Source: Nannocystis bainbridge
GTDB taxonomy: Bacteria; Myxococcota_A; Polyangia; Nannocystales; Nannocystaceae
DNA length: 64,000 nucleotides
Reading direction: 5' to 3'
NCBI RefSeq assembly: GCF_028368995.1
Contig: NZ_JAQNDL010000002.1
Coordinates: 896,001-960,000 of the forward strand
Shown here: in pieces, positions 2,939-55,026 of the stretch
Layout: each line of letters begins with the position of its first letter
How positions within the stretch are numbered: the first letter of the stretch is position 1
The notes under the pieces: generated by a model
Databases searched by the model: none
What the model saw: the letters and a program-made list of their open reading frames with translations, nothing else
What the model was told of the DNA's origin: nothing
Made by a program: the position numbers and the translations under genes

Positions 2939-3889
2939 TCACGGCTTCAGCCGCGGCTGGGTGCGGGTGTGACGGTCGGGGTGCGGGTTGCCGGCCTCGT
3001 CCTGCCACGGGAACACGCGCAGCGACGGATCGCTGTCGGGGTCCCACGCGACCAGGCCGAGGCCCTCGATGTCGCGCGGGACCATGTCCCAGTCGTAGCG
3101 GAACATCGGGTTGTGAGCGTTGCCGAGGCGATCGAAGATGCGCACCTCGAATGACAGGCGGCACCACGTGCGGTACGTGTCGACCTCGGCCGCGGCGCCG
3201 CGGTGCACGGTGTACGCGTCCATCAGCGTCAGCTCCCACGGCGCGGCGTACCAGGCGTGGGCGCTCTGCGTCCGGGCGACCTGGTTGTTCATCTCGAAGA
3301 AGAAGTTATGGCGCGCCTCGTCGAGGCCGGTGAATTCGAACGGCTGGACGTAGTAGGCCGTCGGCAGGCAATCGGTCACGGTGTACGTGTGGTTGATGCG
3401 GACCTTGGGCTGCCAGCGGGCGCCCTGGAAGCCGTCGACGTGGCAGGGCGCCTCGCGCTGCAGCACGCCGCCGCGCACGGGGCCCTGGTCGACGGTGAGG
3501 TAGCAGTAGAACTCGTCGTAGTGGCACGGGTTGACGGCGAGCTCGAGGTCGGCGACGCGCTGGACCAGCCAGCGCAGCTGCGCCAGCTCGGCGGGCAGGC
3601 GGAAGTCCGAGCCGGGGAACTTGATCGGCATGTCGAGGGTGCGCGGCATGCCGGGGCGCACCAGCGCGGCGCGCTCGGCCTCGGGGACCTGGCCGAGCTC
3701 GACGGGGCGGCGCGCGACCTTGAATTGCTCGAGATCCCAGATCGTGCCGATCTGGGCGAGGATCGGCGAGTCGGCCGGGAGCGCGGGCAGGATGGCCTTT
3801 GGGTCAGGTTCGATCCGCACGCCGCTGCTGGCGAGGCCGGGGACCGTGTAGTGCTTGCCGCGGTAGCCGAGCTGGTGGACGTCCGTCAC
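2939..3889 (-). CDS. Hypothetical protein, possible Fe(II)/2-oxoglutarate dioxygenase-like fold
   Basis: GTG at 3889 overlaps the upstream TGA, with a GGAGG RBS; HVDG...HRG...R pattern resembles the HxD...H facial triad. Confidence 0.55.
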   Translation of the reverse strand: MTDVHQLGYRGKHYTVPGLASSGVRIEPDPKAILPALPADSPILAQIGTIWDLEQFKVARRPVELGQVPEAERAALVRPGMPRTLDMPIKFPGSDFRLPAELAQLRWLVQRVADLELAVNPCHYDEFYCYLTVDQGPVRGGVLQREAPCHVDGFQGARWQPKVRINHTYTVTDCLPTAYYVQPFEFTGLDEARHNFFFEMNNQVARTQSAHAWYAAPWELTLMDAYTVHRGAAAEVDTYRTWCRLSFEVRIFDRLGNAHNPMFRYDWDMVPRDIEGLGLVAWDPDSDPSLRVFPWQDEAGNPHPDRHTRTQPRLKP

Positions 3890-4842
3890 GCCTCCGTCAT
3901 CTCGCACAGGCCGCGGACGTTGGCGAGGCCCTCGACGGCGTCGACCTCGGGCGCGCGGCCGTGCGCGACGGCGTCGACGAAGTCCTGGAGCTCGCCGAGG
4001 TAGGGGTCGGCTGGCTCATAGGACAGCTCGCGGTCGCCCACGACGATCCGGCCGCCGCCGTGCGGGCCGAGGACCTCGTCGCCGCGGGCCGAGCCGGCGT
4101 CGCCGAACACCTCGATCGTCCGCGGGGCGCGGAAGACGACCGAGGTGAGGATGTCGGCCGTGGCGCCGCTGGCGAACCGCAGCGCGACCGCGGCGGTCTC
4201 GTCGTGGGGGCTGCGGTGGACCGGGCTGCTGGTGAGCGCGCGGGCGTGCTCGATCTCGCCGCACGCGGGGCGCAGGAACCAGCGCACGAGATCGAGGCAG
4301 TGGGTGCCGACGGCCGCGAGCGACCACCAGCGGCCGACCTCGGGCGAGGCGCGCCAGTTGCCGGCGTCGCGCTCGACGAAGGTCCAGGTCGCGCGCATGT
4401 GCAGCACGCGGCCGAGCTCGCCGGCGAGCACGCGCGCGCGCAGGGCCCGGAGGCCGGGGTGAAACCGCAGGTGATAGCCGACGGCGAGGCGGACCCCGGC
4501 GGCCTCGCACGCGCGCACGACGGCCTCGGCGTCGGCGACGGAGGTGGCCATCGGCTTCTCGACGAACACGTGCTTGCCTGCCGCGGCGGCGGCGATCGCC
4601 TGGGCCGCGTGCAAGCGGTCGGGGGTGGCGATCACGACGGCGTCGAGGCGCGGGTCGGCGAGCATGTCGGCGAGGTCGCCGAAGATCGGACCGCGCGCGC
4701 CGTGGCGGGCGGCGAAGATTCGTGCGCGCTCCGGGTCGCGCGAGCACACGCTCCACAGCGTCGCGCCGCGGAGCTGCTGCAGGGCCGGCGCGAGGCGGCG
4801 ATCGGCGATCGATCCGGGGCCGACGACTCCGATGTGCAGCAC
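3886..4842 (-). CDS. Gfo/Idh/MocA family oxidoreductase
   Basis: IGVVGPGSIA Rossmann motif, DAVVIATPDRLH, GKHVFVEKPMA, GTHCLD; start approximate. Confidence 0.9.
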   Translation of the reverse strand: MLHIGVVGPGSIADRRLAPALQQLRGATLWSVCSRDPERARIFAARHGARGPIFGDLADMLADPRLDAVVIATPDRLHAAQAIAAAAAGKHVFVEKPMATSVADAEAVVRACEAAGVRLAVGYHLRFHPGLRALRARVLAGELGRVLHMRATWTFVERDAGNWRASPEVGRWWSLAAVGTHCLDLVRWFLRPACGEIEHARALTSSPVHRSPHDETAAVALRFASGATADILTSVVFRAPRTIEVFGDAGSARGDEVLGPHGGGRIVVGDRELSYEPADPYLGELQDFVDAVAHGRAPEVDAVEGLANVRGLCEMTEA

Positions 4843-6557: not shown

Positions 6558-6600
6558 GGCGTTCGGGACATGTCGTCGAGGACATGTCCCGAAGGACCTG
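6557..6600. repeat. 14-bp periodic array between convergent genes
   Basis: CATG at 6569 and 6583, CCTG at 6597. Confidence 0.85.
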
Positions 6601-10223: not shown

Positions 10224-10315
10224 TCGGCATGTCTTCATAAACATGTCTGAATGGACATGTTTGATGGGGCATGGCCAAGAGAGCATGGCCGAGAGGGCAT
10301 GTTTTCAAGGTCAGG
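10224..10315. repeat. 14-bp periodic array (7 junctions)
   Basis: CATG at 10228, 10242, 10256, 10270, 10284, 10298 and CAGG at 10312. Confidence 0.9.
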
Positions 10316-10557
10316 CGAGGGGGCAGGCCGGCGGGGCTGCCCGCGAGCGGTGCGGATCCGAGAGGCCAGGGCCCGCGTCGAAGCTTCGGTTGGTTTGCCA
10401 GCGACCCGCGGGTCGGGAGCCTCAAAACCGCCGGGATCGTCACGATGGCGCCTGAGCGCATCCTCGACGCCCGCAACCCGGTGAAGGGCGAGCCGCTGCA
10501 GCCCCGGGCGGCGCCCGTCGCTCCGGCGGCCGCCGGTCTGATAGCATCGCGGCGATG

Positions 10558-12572
10558 GTGCGTCCTGACGACGCGGACGAGCTCGGCCCCGGAGGGGGCG
10601 GCTCGGCCGCGTCATGCTGCACCGTTCCAGCGGGTGAAAGTCCCGCCCGGGTAGGCGCCGGAGCGCCCGGTAGCAGGCCCCAGGCGCGAGGAGAGATTCT
10701 CGCGGCCCGAGCGGGGCGTCAAGAGCCTCTGCGGAGGGAGCAAGAACGCGGGCCGCAACATCAAGTGAAGCCTGCAGCCTCGACAGATGAACAATGGGGG
10801 AGCCGAGCCGCTCATCTCACGGCGAAGGCCACGCCCACCGCGCAGTCATCCGGAGCAGAAAGCGCGATGGGTCCTCCCGGGGTATGGGGCGCAGCACGCG
10901 TTCAAGGAGCGATGCGGAACAGGAGAGGCCCGTCTGCACGGCCCGTGTCGGGGCGATGCGACTCGTATAAGCCGAAGGCGAAGTCGAGCGCTGTGCAGCG
11001 GGAGTCCGAGGGGGTCGTAGTACCGGCGATGGCGGCGCAGAACAACGCAGTCGGAGGGAAGGACCCCTGGGGTGGTCGTGTCGGAGAAGAAGGTAAGCGC
11101 GAGGGCATGGCCTGCAGGACAGGTCCCAACCACCCCACGCGGCGCAGGCCGCGTGACAAAGTGCGAGAACTTCGACGCCGACTGTGGGCCGCAGCCAAGC
11201 GGCAACCGGGTCGACGCTTCCATGCGCTGTACGACCGCATCTTCAGGCGTGACGTCCTGAAGGAAGCATGGAGGCGGGTGAAGAAGAACAGGGGGTCAGC
11301 GGGCGTCGATGCCCAGACGCTGGCCGAGGTGGAAGAGCTCGGCGTCGATCGCTTCCTCGAAGAGATCGCCGACGAACTCAAGGGCGGGACGTACCGACCG
11401 AGCGCGGTCATGCGGCGGTACATCCCGAAGGCGGACGGGAAGAAGCGGCCGCTGGGGATCCCGACAGTCCGGGACCGAGTGGTGCAGATGGCGGCGAAGC
11501 TGGTGCTGGAGCCGATCTTCGAGGCGGATTTCCTTCCGTGCTCGTACGGCTTCCGGCCGAAGCGCAGCGCGACGCAGGCGCTCGAGCGACTGCGCGTGCT
11601 GGGAGCTCGAGGTGGGAACCATGTGCTCGACGCTGACATCCGCGACTACTTCGGCAGCATCGATCACGAGCGACTGATGAAGCTCGTCGAGATGCGGATC
11701 TCGGATCGAAGGGTCCTCAAGCTGGTGCGGCAATGGCTCGAAGCCGGCGTGATGGAAGACGGCCAGGTGACGGCGATGCTCTCGGGGACACCCCAGGGCG
11801 GCGTGATCTCACCGCTGCTGTCGAACATCTACCTCGGTGTCCTCGACAAGCTGTGGCAGCGACGGCACGCCCATCTGGGCGAGCTCGTGCGCTACTGCGA
11901 CGACTTCGTGATCCTGTGCGGGACCAGGAAGGCGTGCGAGGAGGCCGAGGTCAGGGTCCGCGAGATCCTGCGGCGTCTCAAGCTGGAACTGCATCCCGAG
12001 AAGACGAGGCGAGTCGAGCTGAGCTGGGGACGGCAAGGCTTCGACTTCCTCGGCTGCCACCTGCGCAAGCGCATGTCCGGGCCGATCTGGGAGAAGGAAC
12101 ATCGCAGGGTGTACTTCCTCCAGCGCTGGCCCTCGACGCGTAGCATGACGCGGGCACGGCAGCGCGTGAAGGAGCTGACCGGCTCGAACCGCAACGGGGC
12201 CAAAGATGTGCGGGTGATCATCCGTGACATCAACCCGGTGCTGCGTGGCTGGGGTAACTACTTCCGCACCGGGAACGCCGCCGTGAAATTCAACCGGATC
12301 GACACCTACGTGTGGTCTCGCCTTCGTCGCTTCATGATGAGGCGCAAGGGCCGGCACCTCCGCGCAGGTGAGGTCGAGAGCTGGACGCGCGACTTCTTCC
12401 ACAACCACGGTCTCCACCGTCTACGGGGGACCGTGCAGTACCCGGAGGCCGCGTAATGCGGCGGCTCGAGAGACCACCGGTAAGCCGTGTGCGGGAAATC
12501 CGCATGCACGGTTTGAACGGGGGTCCTGCCCTTCCTCCGGCTCAAGCAGAGGAAGGGTAGGATCTACCAATG
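10558..12572 (+). mobile_element. Group II intron (ribozyme plus RT/maturase)
   Basis: 5' GTGCG at 10558; GGGTGAAAGTCCC domain I hairpin near 10632; domain V AAGCCGTGTGCGGGAAATCCGCATGCACGGTTT at 12482-12514; domain VI hairpin about 12520-12568 with bulged A12566; 3' end at 12571 or 12572. Confidence 0.9.
11107..12456 (+). CDS. ltrA: Group II intron reverse transcriptase/maturase (no endonuclease domain)
   Basis: RPLGIPTVRDRVVQ, SYGFRPKRS, DADIRDYF, GTPQGGVISPLLSNIYL, YCDD, FDFLG, domain X RGWGNYF; frame stays open upstream to ATG 10555. Confidence 0.95.
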   Translation: MACRTGPNHPTRRRPRDKVRELRRRLWAAAKRQPGRRFHALYDRIFRRDVLKEAWRRVKKNRGSAGVDAQTLAEVEELGVDRFLEEIADELKGGTYRPSAVMRRYIPKADGKKRPLGIPTVRDRVVQMAAKLVLEPIFEADFLPCSYGFRPKRSATQALERLRVLGARGGNHVLDADIRDYFGSIDHERLMKLVEMRISDRRVLKLVRQWLEAGVMEDGQVTAMLSGTPQGGVISPLLSNIYLGVLDKLWQRRHAHLGELVRYCDDFVILCGTRKACEEAEVRVREILRRLKLELHPEKTRRVELSWGRQGFDFLGCHLRKRMSGPIWEKEHRRVYFLQRWPSTRSMTRARQRVKELTGSNRNGAKDVRVIIRDINPVLRGWGNYFRTGNAAVKFNRIDTYVWSRLRRFMMRRKGRHLRAGEVESWTRDFFHNHGLHRLRGTVQYPEAA

Positions 12573-14390
12573 AGCCTCGCCACCGCCCCGACCCAGCCCG
12601 GCGCTCGCTTCGACGACGCGGAGCTCGCCGAGCTGGCGACGGTCCTCGGACACGAGTACACGATCGAACGCGAGCTCGGCCGCGGCGGCATGGGGGTCGT
12701 GCTGCTGGCGCGCGACCTCCGGCTCGAGCGGCCGGTGGCGATCAAGGTGTTGCCGCGCGAGCGAGCCGGCGACGCCGCGCACCGCCAGCGGTTCCTCCGC
12801 GAGGCGAGGACGGCGGCGAAGCTGTCGCACCCGAACATCGTGCCGACCCTCCACGCCGACGAGGCCGGCGCGTTCGCGTATTTCACGATGCCGTACATCG
12901 ACGGCGAGACGCTGGCCGAACGCGTGCATAATCGCGGCCGGCCGACGGCGCGGGAGGTCGTACAGCTGCTGCGCGAGGCCGCGTGGGCGCTGGCCTACGC
13001 GCACGCGCACGGGGTCGTGCACCGCGACATCAAGCCGGAGAACATCCTCGTCGAGCGCGCGACCGGCCGGGTGCTGGTCACCGACTTCGGGATCGCGTTC
13101 GAGGCGCAGGCGTCGCGGCTGACCGGCGACGACCACATGGTGGGGACCGCGGCGTTCATGAGCCCCGAGCAGATCCTCGGGCGCGAGCTCGACGGCCGCA
13201 GCGACCTGTACTCGCTCGGCGTCGTCGGCTACTGGCTGCTCGCCGGGCAGCACCCGTTCGAGGGCGCGGCGGTGCCGGCGGTGCTCGTCAAGCACGCGAC
13301 CGAGCCGGCGGCGCCGCTGCGCACGCTCGCGCCCGAGGTCCCCGCGGGCCTGGCCGCGGCGATCGATCGCTGCCTGGCGAAGGAGCCCGACGCGCGCTGG
13401 CCCTCCGGCGAGGCGTTCGCGGAGGCGCTCGCTACCGCCGAGGAGGAGCTCGCCGGCGTGCCCGCGCGCACCGGCGGCGACCGCCTGCTGGACGAGCGCG
13501 AGGTCTCGGCGGTGCTGCAGCGCGCGGCCCAGCTGCAGGCCGACGCCGCCCGTCGCGTCGAGGAGCGCTCGCGGACCGGGACCGCCGCGCCGGCGCCGAC
13601 CACCACCAGCGCGCTGCGGGTGTCCGAGGTCCAGGCCGCCGCGGCCGAGGCGGGCATCGCCGCAGAGTTCGTGGCGATGGCGGCGGCGGAGCTGCCCACG
13701 AGCGGCGCGCTCGCGGTGCCGTCGGTCTCGGCCGCGGCGGAGGGCCGCTGGTCGATGCGCCTGTTCGGCAAGGACGTCCGCCAGCTCGTCGCCTCGCGGG
13801 TGATCCGCGCGCCGGCGAAGACCGTGCTCGACGCGCTGGCGCACGTGTGGCAGGCCAGCCCTTACAACCTCCGCTTGCTCGACGCCGTCGGCCCTCACCC
13901 GCTCGACGGCGGGGCGGTGATGTTCCGCGTGCCGAAGTTCACCGCCAGCCCCGACGGCTCGGGCTACGGCGGCTTCAGTTATTACATGTACATCCTGTCG
14001 ATCCGTCAGGTCCGCCTGACGATGCAGCGCCGCGGCCGTGATGCGATCGAGTGCACGGCGACCGTCGAGCTGCACGAGACGATCGCGGTCGGCCGCCGGA
14101 TCTTCTTCCCGTGGATGATCGGCGCGACCTCGGTCGTCGGCGGCGCCGCCGGCATGGCGATGTTCATGACGATGATCCCGGTGCTCGCGGTGTTGACGAC
14201 CCTGATCACCGTCGCCTCGGTCTACGGCGGCCTCCACAAGCTCAACCACGTCTTCTACGCCTACTACATCAAGCAAGCGCAGGAGCAGCTCGAGACGCTG
14301 CTCGCCGACGTCGACGCCAACCTGCGCACGCAGGCGGTGTTCGGCAGTCTGCCCGCGCCGCGGCCGGAGCTCCGGCGCGGCGACGACTGA
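12570..14390 (+). CDS. Ser/Thr protein kinase with C-terminal membrane segments
   Basis: GRGGMG, VAIK, HRDIKPEN, DFG, MSPEQ, DLYSLG; two hydrophobic helices near the C-terminus. Confidence 0.92.
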   Translation: MSLATAPTQPGARFDDAELAELATVLGHEYTIERELGRGGMGVVLLARDLRLERPVAIKVLPRERAGDAAHRQRFLREARTAAKLSHPNIVPTLHADEAGAFAYFTMPYIDGETLAERVHNRGRPTAREVVQLLREAAWALAYAHAHGVVHRDIKPENILVERATGRVLVTDFGIAFEAQASRLTGDDHMVGTAAFMSPEQILGRELDGRSDLYSLGVVGYWLLAGQHPFEGAAVPAVLVKHATEPAAPLRTLAPEVPAGLAAAIDRCLAKEPDARWPSGEAFAEALATAEEELAGVPARTGGDRLLDEREVSAVLQRAAQLQADAARRVEERSRTGTAAPAPTTTSALRVSEVQAAAAEAGIAAEFVAMAAAELPTSGALAVPSVSAAAEGRWSMRLFGKDVRQLVASRVIRAPAKTVLDALAHVWQASPYNLRLLDAVGPHPLDGGAVMFRVPKFTASPDGSGYGGFSYYMYILSIRQVRLTMQRRGRDAIECTATVELHETIAVGRRIFFPWMIGATSVVGGAAGMAMFMTMIPVLAVLTTLITVASVYGGLHKLNHVFYAYYIKQAQEQLETLLADVDANLRTQAVFGSLPAPRPELRRGDD

Positions 14391-41514: not shown

Positions 41515-44500
41515 CCGCCTCCGAGCAGGGCGGAGCCGGTCCAGCGGCGGATCCCCGGCACCGACTCGAGCGCCGCGCCGGCGTCGACGAGCTCGGCGAG
41601 CCAGCGACGCGCGAGCCGGGGCGCCGGGTCGCCGCCGTGCGTGGTAGCGATCGCGTCGAGCAGCCCGCGTTCACGCGCCGCCCGGTCGCCGTCGGCGTCG
41701 CGGATCCGCAGCCACGGCACGATCCGGGCCACGAGGTCGGCGGCGTCGGCATCGTCGACGCAGTGGCGCAGGTGGGCCGGCACGCCGCGCACCACCACCG
41801 CGTCGTCGCCGAACACGTCGAGGTCGACGCCGAGGCCGAGCAGCTCGGCGCGCGCGGCCTGGATCAGCGCGACGTCGGCGGTCGGGCGCTGGACCACCGC
41901 CGGCGACAGCAGGCCCTGCACGGCGACGGCGCGGCGGCCGACCAGGTCGCGCTGCAGGCGGAGATAGACCAGGTGCGAGCGGACCCGCCGGAGGTCGACG
42001 GCCAGCAGCGCGTCGCGGTCGGCGAACACGGCCACCGGGCCCGGGAGGCAGGCGAGCAGGGCAGGGATGTCGGGCCGCGCGGTGGCGGCGCTGGCCTGTC
42101 CTCCGGGACCGGACTGTTCGCGCATGTCTCGCGGGACAGGTGCGTCGCCGGGCAGCAGCGCCAGCGAGGCCTCGCGCTCGGGCTCGGCCGGGCGCGGGGC
42201 GGCGCCATCGGGCCGCAGCGCGGCGGCGGCCTCCATCATCGAGCGCTTGTGGCGGTCGTAGCCGTGGTCGAGCGCGCGCGTGCTCAGGCGGTAGGCGCCG
42301 GGGCGCCGCTCGTCGGCCGCGGGCGCGGGCGCCGGCGCCGGGTCGGGCTGACGCTCGGACCAGCGCAGCAGCGGATCGGCGCTGGCGCGCAAGTCGGGTG
42401 GGAACTCGCCGTCGGCCCGCTCGATCCACGCGGCGGCGCGGTCGCGGGCCGGGTCGAGCTCGCCGACGGCGCCGGCGCGCGCCAGCCAGGCGAGGTCGTC
42501 GGGGGACATGTCCCCGGGGACAGGCACCTCGGGCCGCTCGCGGGCGGGACCGGTGCCCGAGGACATGTCCTGCGGGACAGGCGAGCGGAGCAGGGTGGGG
42601 CCGGCCGCGGGCGACATGTCCTCGGGGACAGGACGTGGGCTGGCCGAGGGCGCGGGGCTCGCGGATGGGTCCTCGGCGGGTCGAGCGGCTTGGCTACCCG
42701 AGGTTCGGGCAGCGACCGGATCGGCATCACCGGGGGTCGCTTGCTCGCGGTCCTGATCGGACCCGAATGGCATGTCCTGAGAGACATGTCCGAACGATCC
42801 GGGCCGAAGGGACATGTCCTCGGTGCCAGGTCGACCCGGGCCTGGCGCGGGCTCGCGGGACGAGTGCCGGGCGGCATCCGGATCGGCCAGGTCGAGGTCC
42901 CAGCCGGCGTCGCCCGTCGGCGCCGCCACGGTCGGCCCGGCGCCGGTCCGTCGCGCCGGCTCGGGGGCGGACGTGGCGAGCGCGGTCTCGACGAGCGGGC
43001 GGCGGGTGGCGTCGACCGAGGCCTCGGCGCGGCTCAGCCAGGCCTCGGCCTCGGCGCGGCGCCCGGCCGCCGCGGCTGCCGCTGCCTGCTGGGCGCGGCG
43101 GACGGCGGGGCCGGGCGCGTCGGACTCGAGGTCGTCGGCGCGACGCGGCGAGCTCGAAGACGTCTCGTCGCCAGCAGGAGCGCCGTCGTGGGCGTGCGTG
43201 GCCCTCGGAGCACCCGCGGAGACGTCGCGGCTCGCGTCGTCCCGCTGCGAGCGCGGGGGATCGCCCTCGTCGTCCGGGTCGTCGTCCTGCTCCTCCGGCG
43301 TCTCGCCGGCGTGCGGGCGCGCGGGGCGACGGCGCGGGTGTCCAGCGCCTTGTGCCTCGTCCTCGCGCGGGTCGCCGACGCGGACCGGCGCGAAGCCGAT
43401 CGGGATCGCGCCGCCGCGGCCGGGGGGCACGCCGGTCGCGCGCGGGGTCTCGCTCGCGGCTGGCGCATCGGACATGTTCGTAGCGACCTGTCCCGAAAGA
43501 CCGGCGAGTTCGCCGGCCCACGGCGCGGCGGCCACGGCGGCGGCGAGGATCCGGCGCACGGCCGCGTAGACCTGCTGCGGCTCGCTGAAGCGGACCTCGG
43601 CCTTTTGCGGGTGGACGTTGACGTCGACGGCGCCGCTGGGCGGCTCGACGAACAGGCAGGCCGAGGGGGCCTCTCCACCGAGGCCGTAGGCCTGGGTGAG
43701 GATCTGCGCCAGGCTGCGCTCCCGCACCACGCGCTGGCGGGTGATGAGGTAGGGGCTGCCGCGACCGCGGGCGGCGGCGGTCGGGTGGGGCAGGAAGGCT
43801 TCGACGCGGATGCCGTCGTCCTCGCCGCGGAAGGCGAAGAACGGGCCGCCGACGCGGCGCTCGAGCACCTGGGCGACGCGGCCCTCGCGGGTGGTCCGCG
43901 GCAAGTTGAGCAGCTCGCGCTTGCCGTGGCGCAGGGTGAAGTGGACGCCCGGGTGGACGATGGCGAGGCGCAGCAGGGTGTCGCTGCAGTGGCCGACCTC
44001 GGTCGCCTCGGCGCGCATGAACTTGCGCCGGGCGGGCAGGTTGGCGAACAGCGCGTGCACGTCGATCTGGGTCCCGACCGGCATGCCGGCCGGGGTGAGG
44101 ACGGGGGCCTCGCCAGGGATCCCGTGCAGGTGCACGCCGACGGCCGCGCCGGGCTGGCGGCTGCGCAGGTCGACGCGCGCGACCGCGGCGACGCTGGCGA
44201 GCGCCTCGCCGCGGAAGCCGAGAGTGACGATGTCGGCGATGTCGGCCGCGTGCCGCAGCTTGCTGGTGGCGTGGCGGGTGACGGCGAGCAGGAGGTCGTC
44301 AGGGTGGATCCCGCGGCCGTTGTCGCGGACGGAGATCCGGGCCATGCCGCCGTCCTCGAGCTCGACGTCGACGCGGGTCGCGCCGGCGTCGAGGCTGTTG
44401 TCGACCAGCTCCTTGATGACCGAGGCGGGCCGCTCGACGACCTCGCCGGCGGCGATCTGGTCGATCACCAGGGCGCCGAGCACGGCGATCCGTCCGGAGG

Positions 44501-50471: not shown

Positions 50472-50510
50472 AATGGCTTCGAGGACATGTCCTGCAGGAC
50501 ATGTCCTCGA
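50472..50510. repeat. 14-bp array forming a perfect 32-bp palindrome
   Basis: tcgaggacatgtcctgcaggacatgtcctcga at 50479-50510; CATG at 50486 and 50500. Confidence 0.9.
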
Positions 50511-54976: not shown

Positions 54977-55026
54977 GATGGCCGAAGCGACATGTCTTCA
55001 TGCACATGTCCGACCAGTCATGTTCT
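54977..55026. repeat. 14-bp periodic array between convergent genes
   Basis: GATG 54977; CATG 54991, 55005, 55019. Confidence 0.85.

Follow-up and report, generated by a model that had tools for sequence, protein, structure and literature searches.

The window, that is, the whole 64,000-nt stretch of the forward strand of Nannocystis bainbridge contig NZ_JAQNDL010000002.1 (positions 896,001 to 960,000; coordinates below are those of the window), came from a GC-rich 11-Mb genome (designated G000) and carried a group II intron between the start codon and the body of a Ser/Thr protein kinase gene. A sequence-only reading had placed this intron at a start codon and proposed that it ended in a non-canonical AUG and supplied the kinase gene again with a ribosome-binding site (RBS) and an AUG. 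The comparison of this intron with its copies, relatives, and intron-less alleles indicated, with a probability of about 0.8, that it belonged to a clade homing to the first codon boundary of leaderless-type genes and carrying a terminal AUG. The features of the locus were as follows (IBS, intron-binding site; EBS, exon-binding site):

10539..10547, plus strand: -10-like promoter element TGA-TAGCAT, with the hexamer TANNNT at 10542-10547, preceded by TG and 7 nt upstream of the host start codon
10554..10557, plus strand: IBS1 (GATG), the last 5'-exon bases, made up of the kinase start codon ATG (10555-10557) and one upstream base, and pairing with EBS1
10555..12456, plus strand: open frame of 633 codons from the open reading frame (ORF) list, running from the host start codon through ribozyme domains I-III to the stop of the reverse transcriptase (RT)
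10558..12572, plus strand: group II intron of 2015 nt, GUGCG...CUACCAAUG, delimited by Rfam matches, copies, empty alleles, and EBS3-IBS3
10813..10816, plus strand: EBS1 (CAUC) in the hairpin loop UCAUCUCA, covarying with target positions -4 and -3 across subfamilies and phyla
10885, plus strand: EBS3 (the U in GGGGUA[U]GGGG), pairing with A12573 as judged from covariation and a blind scan
11107..12456, plus strand: core of the intron-encoded protein (RT plus maturase X, no endonuclease domain; Pfam RVT_1 and GIIM), counted from a conserved internal ATG in domain IVa
12481..12515, plus strand: domain V (Rfam Intron_gpII alignment and fold)
12519..12568, plus strand: domain VI (fold), with the bulged branch-point candidate A12566 and a Shine-Dalgarno (SD)-like AGGA (12559-12562) in its 3' strand
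12570..12572, plus strand: intron-borne terminal AUG, in frame with the kinase, a candidate start codon in unspliced RNA
12573..14390, plus strand: 3' exon, the body of the Ser/Thr protein kinase gene (Pkinase), in which A12573 was IBS3 and from which the orthologues in five congeners matched

The element at 10558-12572 is a real group II intron, as seen from its 5' GUGCG, Rfam matches, domain V/VI fold, and RVT_1 plus GIIM domains. Three Rfam matches were found: (i) group-II-D1D4-4 at 10628-10763 (80.6 bits; gathering threshold 49); (ii) D1D4-6 at 10776-10883 (47.6 bits, slightly under the gathering threshold of 49); and (iii) Intron_gpII, covering domains V-VI, at 12480-12571 (39.7 bits, slightly under the gathering threshold of 40). 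The general group II traits GUGYG at the 5' end, domain V, domain VI with a bulged A, and an RT/maturase ORF in domain IV were all present, but the usual 3' end ...AY was replaced by ...AAUG, as indicated by empty alleles and EBS3-IBS3 covariation (see below). The fold of domains V-VI had a z-score of -6.0, none of 200 shuffles folding equally well; domain VI was long, with A12566 as its single bulged A and an unpaired AAUG following the helix, and the fold agreed with the sequence-only reading in placing A12566 seventh from an end at 12572. The AGGA at 12559-12562, 7 nt 5' of the terminal ATG, was paired inside this helix. The intron-encoded protein matched RVT_1 (E 4.5e-34) and GIIM (E 8.3e-17), terminated about 30 residues past the maturase domain, and displayed no endonuclease (En) domain in the Pfam search; solved RT structures of several classes scored alike against it (187, 185, 174, and 160 bits) and did not discriminate between classes. 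The downstream kinase gene comprised 606 codons (Pkinase, E 9.4e-46).

Boundaries of the intron

The left junction read ggcgATG/GTGCG (the slash marks the junction; ATG at 10555-10557, GTGCG at 10558-10562), the right one read TAGGATCTACCAATG/AGCCTC with ATG at 12570-12572, and the insert was thereby one base longer than the canonical GUGYG...AY form. Both junctions had been described in this way from the sequence alone, and every such sequence statement held when the window was read again: removal of 10558-12572 left ATG AGC CTC GCC, while removal of 10558-12571 left the out-of-frame ATG GAG CC. The three comparisons which that reading had named as checks (intron-less alleles, other copies, and EBS/IBS mapping) all came out in its favor, as detailed below.

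The kinase orthologue was searched for in five congeners (G001, G003, G005, G007, and G010) and was found in all of them at 90-93% identity, with the alignment running from 12573 onward and directly preceded by ...TGATAGCATCC-GGGCGATG. All five alleles were empty and read ...GGGCGATG/AGCCTCGCC, with GCGATG/AGCCTC at the junction, which equaled the window minus 10558-12572. Upstream of about -25, no conservation was seen at the kinase start among the congeners, so the upstream frame was not coding; the -10-like TAGCAT was conserved in the five intron-less alleles, while the sequence further upstream was not. The spacer between TAGCAT and ATG (window 10548-10554) was 7 nt in the occupied allele versus 8 nt in the five intron-less ones (L134-L138), and the occupied allele differed from them by one base in the discriminator. 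The same comparison was applied to the 19 foreign sites, occupied by copies in G001, G007, and G010: 8 of them had exact intron-less counterparts in G000, with the two flanks abutting as ...RTG/NNN (e.g., GCCGGTG/CCGAAG, without the extra G), and the remaining 11 comprised one site occupied in G000 (L053), two diverged at the junction (L035 and L036), and eight without one or both flanks.

EBS3 was located by a blind scan in which each alignment column within the first 430 nt of the intron was compared with the first base past the terminal G. Intron nt 328 (window 10885) formed a Watson-Crick pair with that base in 48 of 59 copies, plus three G-U pairs; by EBS3 base, the matches were A-T 4/4, C-G 10/13, G-C 20/23, and U-A 14/19, a total reached by none of 2000 permutations. 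Near-identical introns matched their differing sites in 3/3 (G000), 5/5 (G007), 4/4 (the approximately 70%-identical family), and 4/7 (G001) cases. This pairing places the first base of the 3' exon at 12573, and the congener alleles, the eight other empty sites, and the EBS3 covariation together reject the canonical end at 12571. An end at 12572, in a non-canonical AUG as originally proposed, is thus supported by the compared sequences.

The 3-nt repeat RTG...RTG leaves the DNA junctions ambiguous, and the 2015-nt insert might instead be cut one base to the left at both ends, AU/G-GUGCG...CCAAU/G, which would place the insertion inside the start codon, give a canonical AU at the 3' end, and let the 5'-terminal C of the EBS1 loop pair with the exon G. 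Most copies would then have AY as their 3' end, known splice sites include some upstream of GUGYG (available portions of Zimmerly & Semper 2015, PMC4424553), and the groEL introns interrupt a stop codon between its second and third positions (available portions of Gomes et al. 2025, PMC12584367). Against this register, however, the base covarying with EBS3 would become exon position +2, the branch A would be sixth rather than seventh from the end, and the 5' end would read GGUGCG in every member, with GUGCG being the invariant part; we regard it as unlikely. An intron with canonical boundaries (10558-12571, GUGCG...AU), in which the kinase would start at ATG 10446, the terminal ATG would be coincidental, and splicing would fuse the MAPERILD... 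frame as ...ASRR/W-SLATAP with a spliced cDNA reading ATGGAGCC, is practically untenable: the Rfam domain V-VI match does stop at 12571, and such a splice would be in frame with the upstream ORF 10271..10654 (a point missed by the sequence-only reading), but this ORF had no Pfam family match, the five intron-less alleles read CGATG/AGC, not CGATGGAGC, and lost conservation upstream of about -25, eight other sites carried the same one-base-longer insert, and EBS3 paired with the base after the G. The fusion of the kinase to the upstream ORF by canonical splicing was thus rejected at the DNA level by the five intron-less alleles.

Contigs from public RNA runs covered the intron body only (88-99% alike, and so from relatives), none bridged either junction, and no contig joined the two exons without the intron, which made them uninformative on splicing. 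Metatranscriptome runs (root, wetland, and others) contained many contigs 88-99% alike to 10561-12561, with DNA carry-over possible; relatives of the intron were thus present in environmental RNA libraries.

Target site and its read-out

G000 held three copies of the intron (99-100% identical), and the congeners G001, G007, and G010 held the 19 further copies at about 93% or 70% identity. The 5' exon ended in ATG (12) or GTG (10) in all 22 copies of these four congeners, the copies themselves ending in CC(A/C)(A/G)TG, and TANNNT started 15 or 16 nt before the junction, that is, 6-7 nt upstream of the start codon, in 21 of them, the sole exception having TCACCT instead; positions from about -9 to -5 and from +2 onward held little or no information. 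Only 14,068 occurrences of TANNNT were present on both strands of G000, a rarity that makes the placement in 21/22 copies no matter of chance. ORFs downstream began at the junction, and several looked on direct reading like signal peptides or lipoprotein signals.

L003 (G000:C2:1697144-1699157) and L053 (G010:C1:6404814-6406801) occupied the same orthologous start with introns about 69% identical in flanks about 80% identical, which suggests repeated invasion or replacement at this site. L049 (G010:C1:7331433-7332328) was internally deleted to 897 nt, with most of the RT lost, and still sat at a TAAACT-N6-ATG start with its terminal ATG kept (CCCATG). Among more distant copies, the domain V strands of L062 (about 3880-3950; a Polyangiaceae relative) were apparently split by an approximately 35-nt insertion at the apical loop, and L092 (1115-3903; Acidimicrobiales) measured 2789 nt end to end, about 800 nt above its relatives, owing to an insertion or a misplaced 5' end.

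An RT-based scan of species-representative genomes gave 80 loci at 48-78% identity from Myxococcota, Planctomycetota, Acidobacteriota, Spirochaetota, Pseudomonadota, Actinomycetota, Chloroflexota, and other phyla; the actinomycete loci included Embleya, Pseudonocardia, and Mycobacterium simiae, and the named records among the relatives included Nannocystis, Sorangium, and other myxobacteria. The ends of these relatives were placed by profiles built from confirmed copies, under a rule blind to the flank, and 5' targets were counted at the 45 loci whose 5' end could be placed and whose flank exceeded 20 nt. RTG preceded 44 of the 45 placed 5' ends, TANNNT lay at -15/-16 in 40/45 and within -14 to -17 in 43/45, and 62 of 63 placed 3' ends finished in RTG, mostly CUACCAAUG; the exceptions to the RTG rule were outgroup rows. 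All site-positive copies fell into one 73-row group of the RT tree (support 89), with the Bacillota introns and three long-branch rows outside, and the host phyla were intermixed on the tree, which points to horizontal spread. A target rule of TANNNT, 6-7 nt, and N-R-T-G/N, shared by this widely spread clade, is supported by the aligned sites.

Of 63 sites, EBS1 positions 1 to 4 paired with target positions -1 to -4 in 63, 63, 63, and 59, respectively; none of 5000 permutations, run on related copies, reached the counts observed at positions 3 and 4 (target -3 and -4), and position 5 was at chance (32/63). The sets observed were (i) CAUC with GAUG, (ii) CACU with GGUG or AGUG, (iii) CAUG with CAUG or CGUG, (iv) CACG with CGUG, and (v) CAUA with UAUG. 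In the window, the mapping envisaged earlier thus gave a 4-nt EBS1 pairing with the start codon plus one base and EBS3 pairing with A12573. A blind scan of all domain I columns against the flank from -20 to +3 raised only -4, -3, and +1 above the null, and no EBS2 or any pairing with -5 to -20, +2, or +3 rose above it; with EBS1 and EBS3 as the only signals, base pairing reads five nucleotides, without EBS2. The middle of the hexamer varied among sites of near-identical introns in G001 (TATGCT, TACTCT, TACACT, TATACT, and TAGCCT), so its T, A, and T would be read without base pairing, by the intron-encoded protein, an RNA tertiary contact, or a host factor. In 55 of 59 copies, EBS1 position 3 was the complement of the R of the terminal RUG (CAU/AUG and CAC/GUG; 12570-12572 versus 10813-10815 in the window), the intron 3' end thereby mimicking IBS1.

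In G000, the arrangement of TANNNT, spacer, RTG, and an ORF of at least 150 codons occurred 587 times with a 6-nt spacer and 535 times with a 7-nt spacer, versus about 70-160 times for spacers of 0-5 and 11-20 nt, spacers of 8-10 nt forming a shoulder; this architecture is thus common in G000 independently of introns. The available portions of Zheng et al. 2011 (PMC3160421) name TANNNT as the leaderless signature of high-GC bacteria, its first T lying about 12 bp upstream of the translation start, and those of Cortes et al. 2013 (PMC3898074) give TANNNT as the -10 motif of Mycobacterium tuberculosis, with no -35 motif. At intron sites, the first T of TANNNT lay 12-13 nt before the start codon, and the generic leaderless-type sites of G000 showed G at -17 (64%) and C at -4 (60%), as did the intron sites; CAUG, the commonest EBS1 in the clade, fitted C-RTG, the commonest context. 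The target sites are therefore probably leaderless gene starts, to judge from their sequence signature.

The promoter might play no part in recognition: an intron reading only NRTG/N would land anywhere and survive only at leaderless starts, where it would be transcribed and harmless. Base pairing spans only five nucleotides, and 223 leaderless-type sites in G000 fit EBS1 with only three of them occupied, both of which this alternative can accommodate. However, 66 of the 67 flanked copies (22 plus 45) followed RTG and 61 of the 67 had TANNNT at the fixed distance of 6-7 nt, whereas sense insertions within and between genes should be tolerated, as with other group II introns, and the only copy away from a start was an outgroup row; moreover, the spacing, mostly 6 and sometimes 7, was tighter than at generic starts, which also use 8-10. 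Survival at leaderless starts without recognition of the promoter appears improbable on this evidence, and homing to the combined promoter and start codon is preferred.

The orientation of the copies relative to replication was also uniform. The dnaA gene lay at 12.49 Mb in G001 (a single contig of 13.23 Mb), 8.50 Mb in G007, and 5.04 Mb in G010, and by its position the copies were transcribed in the direction of fork movement in 7/7, 7/7, and 5/5 cases, respectively; in G000, all three copies were co-oriented by GC skew, the cumulative minimum of which (4.42 Mb, C1) adjoined dnaA (4.35 Mb). Generic leaderless-type starts displayed no such bias (528/1115, 47% co-oriented), and 22/22 against this background has a probability of about 6e-8 if the copies are independent. 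Co-orientation of all 22 copies makes the sense strand, which receives the intron, the lagging-strand template. The bias fits the fork-dependent mobility known for En-less introns.

The window also contained a dispersed motif, GACATGT, mostly as the palindrome GACATGTC, in 56 occurrences versus 3.3 expected (a count reached by none of 100 shuffles). It often came as two copies about 14 nt apart, one pair lying just upstream of the kinase promoter (examples at 6567-6588, 10241-10260, 42505-42818, 50484-50505, and 54989-55010), and it looks like a dispersed operator or repeat of the host genome.

Terminal AUG and fused reading frame

Of 83 copies, 73 had ATG and 10 had GTG as the terminal triplet. 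No subfamily varied in this triplet (GTG throughout G001, ATG elsewhere), and it differed from the host codon in 10 of 64 cases, so the 3' RTG belongs to the intron and is no target duplication. An ORF of at least 100 codons, or one open to the end of the locus, followed it in 73 of the 83 copies. As for the proposal that the intron re-supplies both an RBS and an AUG, AGGA does lie 7 nt upstream of the ATG in the window and the AUG proved clade-wide, but the RBS was confined to a sublineage (an SD-like motif in 41/83), and actinobacterial-type copies carried CCCCUGACUACCAAUG. Folding of domain VI, as modeled, may gate translation of the kinase. Splicing at the mapped sites would restore ATG/AGC, the allele of the congeners.

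The frame set by the host start codon stayed open to the RT stop in 43 of the 65 copies with both ends placed (617-894 codons), while each copy closed its other two frames within 3-76 codons. Stop triplets within the first 540 nt numbered 65, 283, and 330 by frame, and all 65 in the first frame came from frame-broken copies. Within the window's clade, 24 of the 27 copies that could be assessed had the fused frame, as against none of 10 in the actinobacterial-type clade. Since the start codon is IBS1, EBS1 pairing and translation initiation should exclude each other on one molecule.

The RT may nevertheless always be made from the internal ATG (11107), the frame through domains I-III yielding no functional fusion and being open for some other cause, such as ribosomes running on from the host codon through the ribozyme, or by GC-rich chance; a stop-free stretch of 183 codons at about 69% GC has an estimated chance of a few percent. 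The internal ATG and the preceding ..GGTAAGCGCGAGGGC motif of domain IVa were conserved family-wide, and the actinobacterial-type clade, being out of frame, points the same way. What speaks for a translated fusion is the register: in the open copies, the RT motif lay 843 to 936 nt from intron nt 1, at 14 different distances that were each divisible by 3, no stop occurred in frame 0 as compared with 3-12 in each other frame, and the fused frame clustered on the tree as tightly in none of 500 shuffles. Exclusive use of the internal ATG is accordingly a serious possibility, which we put at somewhat less than even; a frame used from the host codon remains the reading followed below.

Proposed course and comparison with known systems

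Homing to leaderless gene starts would proceed as follows. The ribonucleoprotein would reverse-splice into single-stranded DNA at replication forks, like known En-less introns, with the intron-encoded protein or a tertiary RNA contact reading the -10-like element. The host promoter would start transcription at or next to the start codon, leaving a precursor whose 5' exon is little more than the start codon, which is IBS1. In the window's clade, ribosomes starting at the host codon could read through the ribozyme into the RT, a conserved internal start being present as well. Splicing would restore ATG/AGC exactly, and unspliced RNA could express the kinase from the terminal AUG of the intron, helped in this sublineage by the SD-like AGGA. 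With the start restored by splicing and an AUG retained in unspliced RNA, the insertion would cost the host little.

Several points weigh against this account. Transcription start sites were deduced from sequence alone, and the read-out of TANNNT by the intron-encoded protein, an RNA contact, or a host factor is likewise an inference. The RT tree came from a quick search and was midpoint-rooted; the intron copies are related, and the permutation counts overstate their independence. Replichores in G001, G007, and G010 were set from dnaA with the terminus assumed opposite, and two copies lay within about 0.6 Mb of that assumed terminus. An SD-like motif preceded the terminal RTG in fewer than half of the copies (see above). 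The conserved internal ATG and domain IVa motif mean that the RT need not come from the host codon, and the actinobacterial-type clade manages without the fused frame. The RNA contigs from public runs were intron pieces of relatives, none of them across this locus.

A wider reading, which we put forward only tentatively, would have a pan-bacterial clade use the leaderless gene start as a homing site and an expression cassette at once: (i) the -10 element would be recognized in a sigma-factor-like manner, without base pairing, on the single-stranded sense strand at forks; (ii) transcription from that promoter would give a three-nucleotide 5' exon; (iii) in one subclade, the RT would be translated from the host start codon straight through the ribozyme; (iv) this codon being IBS1, the splicing fold and translation would be mutually exclusive; and (v) the host would be repaid with a replacement AUG at the non-canonical 3' end.

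One of the closest parallels was the IIB1 start/stop-codon lineage (Avi.groEL and EcKTE56.groEL; Michel et al. 2007, as reported by Gomes et al. 2025, PMC12584367), the codon-targeting mechanism of which is stated to be unknown in the available portions of the latter; its features below are taken from the same portions. That lineage is likewise tied to initiation and termination codons, as was the present clade (insertion in or next to such a codon in 22/22 and 44/45 copies). The groEL introns keep a working codon by changing the stop UAA to UAG, whereas here an AUG was supplied again. Members of that lineage are given as proteobacterial, sit in housekeeping genes, and are large (3228 nt), with a subdomain Ia of 300-700 nt and CL1-lineage RTs; in contrast, the present intron measured 2015 nt, encoded an En-less RT, and had relatives in many unrelated genes and phyla. 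No subdomain Ia of that kind was found, only 70 nt (10558-10627) preceding the first Rfam domain I block and 549 nt in all separating the 5' end from the RT start. The shared target of this clade was a promoter plus a start codon, in no particular host gene, and the intron is a parallel to the Azotobacter groEL lineage, not a member of it.

Class C (IIC) introns share with this clade a short EBS1, the lack of EBS2, an En-less protein, and a generic gene-boundary signal read at a fixed upstream distance at many unrelated sites (available portions of Gomes et al. 2025, PMC12584367, and Waldern et al. 2020, PMC7306698); the 4-nt EBS1 found here, with position 5 at chance, agreed with that description. 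IIC introns, however, read a terminator or attC hairpin and sit after genes, whereas this clade had a -10-like TANNNT and sat after the start codon, its flanks presenting TANNNT plus a start codon in place of a hairpin, and the Rfam D1-D4 matches were to models other than those of IIC. Group II introns are known to avoid doing damage by residing within mobile elements or downstream of terminators.

RmInt1 targets a single long and specific sequence within an insertion element via EBS1, EBS2, and EBS3, whereas in this clade only five nucleotides were base-paired and the sites were gene starts. RmInt1-type introns resemble the present one in having no En domain and a link to replication forks, seen here as a strand bias relative to replication (22/22 co-oriented). 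According to the available portions of Gomes et al. 2025 (PMC12584367), the beta clamp guides RmInt1 to forks, and fork-dependent mobility is given for En-less introns there and in those of Waldern et al. 2020 (PMC7306698).

No paper in the literature searched connected group II introns with leaderless genes, promoters, or a terminal AUG, although Michel et al. 2007 and supplements might do so, and the available portions of Zimmerly & Semper 2015 (PMC4424553), Toro & Martinez-Abarca 2013, and Waldern et al. 2020 (PMC7306698) contained no mention of start codons. The clade and its leaderless-start target rule are thus apparently undescribed. Altered splice sites are known in group II introns, and bacterial RT ORFs are described as lying within domain IV (available portions of Zimmerly & Semper 2015, PMC4424553).

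A leaderless -10 box plus start codon as target offers a testable answer to how introns find start codons, and the clade as a whole would present a natural 3' splice site that breaks the AY rule. Intron copies could serve as independent markers of leaderless gene starts where transcription start maps are absent, and the minimal target rule could serve retargetable introns. In annotation, these host genes will be given wrong starts by gene callers, or RT fusions of 630 codons will be predicted.

To our knowledge, no earlier bacterial candidate for an RT frame fused to the upstream exon has been put forward. In yeast mitochondrial aI1/aI2, the intron ORF continues the frame of the upstream exon across domains I-III as far as the RT, but these introns are organellar, interrupt cox1, and have an upstream exon with a long coding sequence. 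The fused frame of the present intron is alike in layout, with the difference that its upstream exon gives only the start codon.

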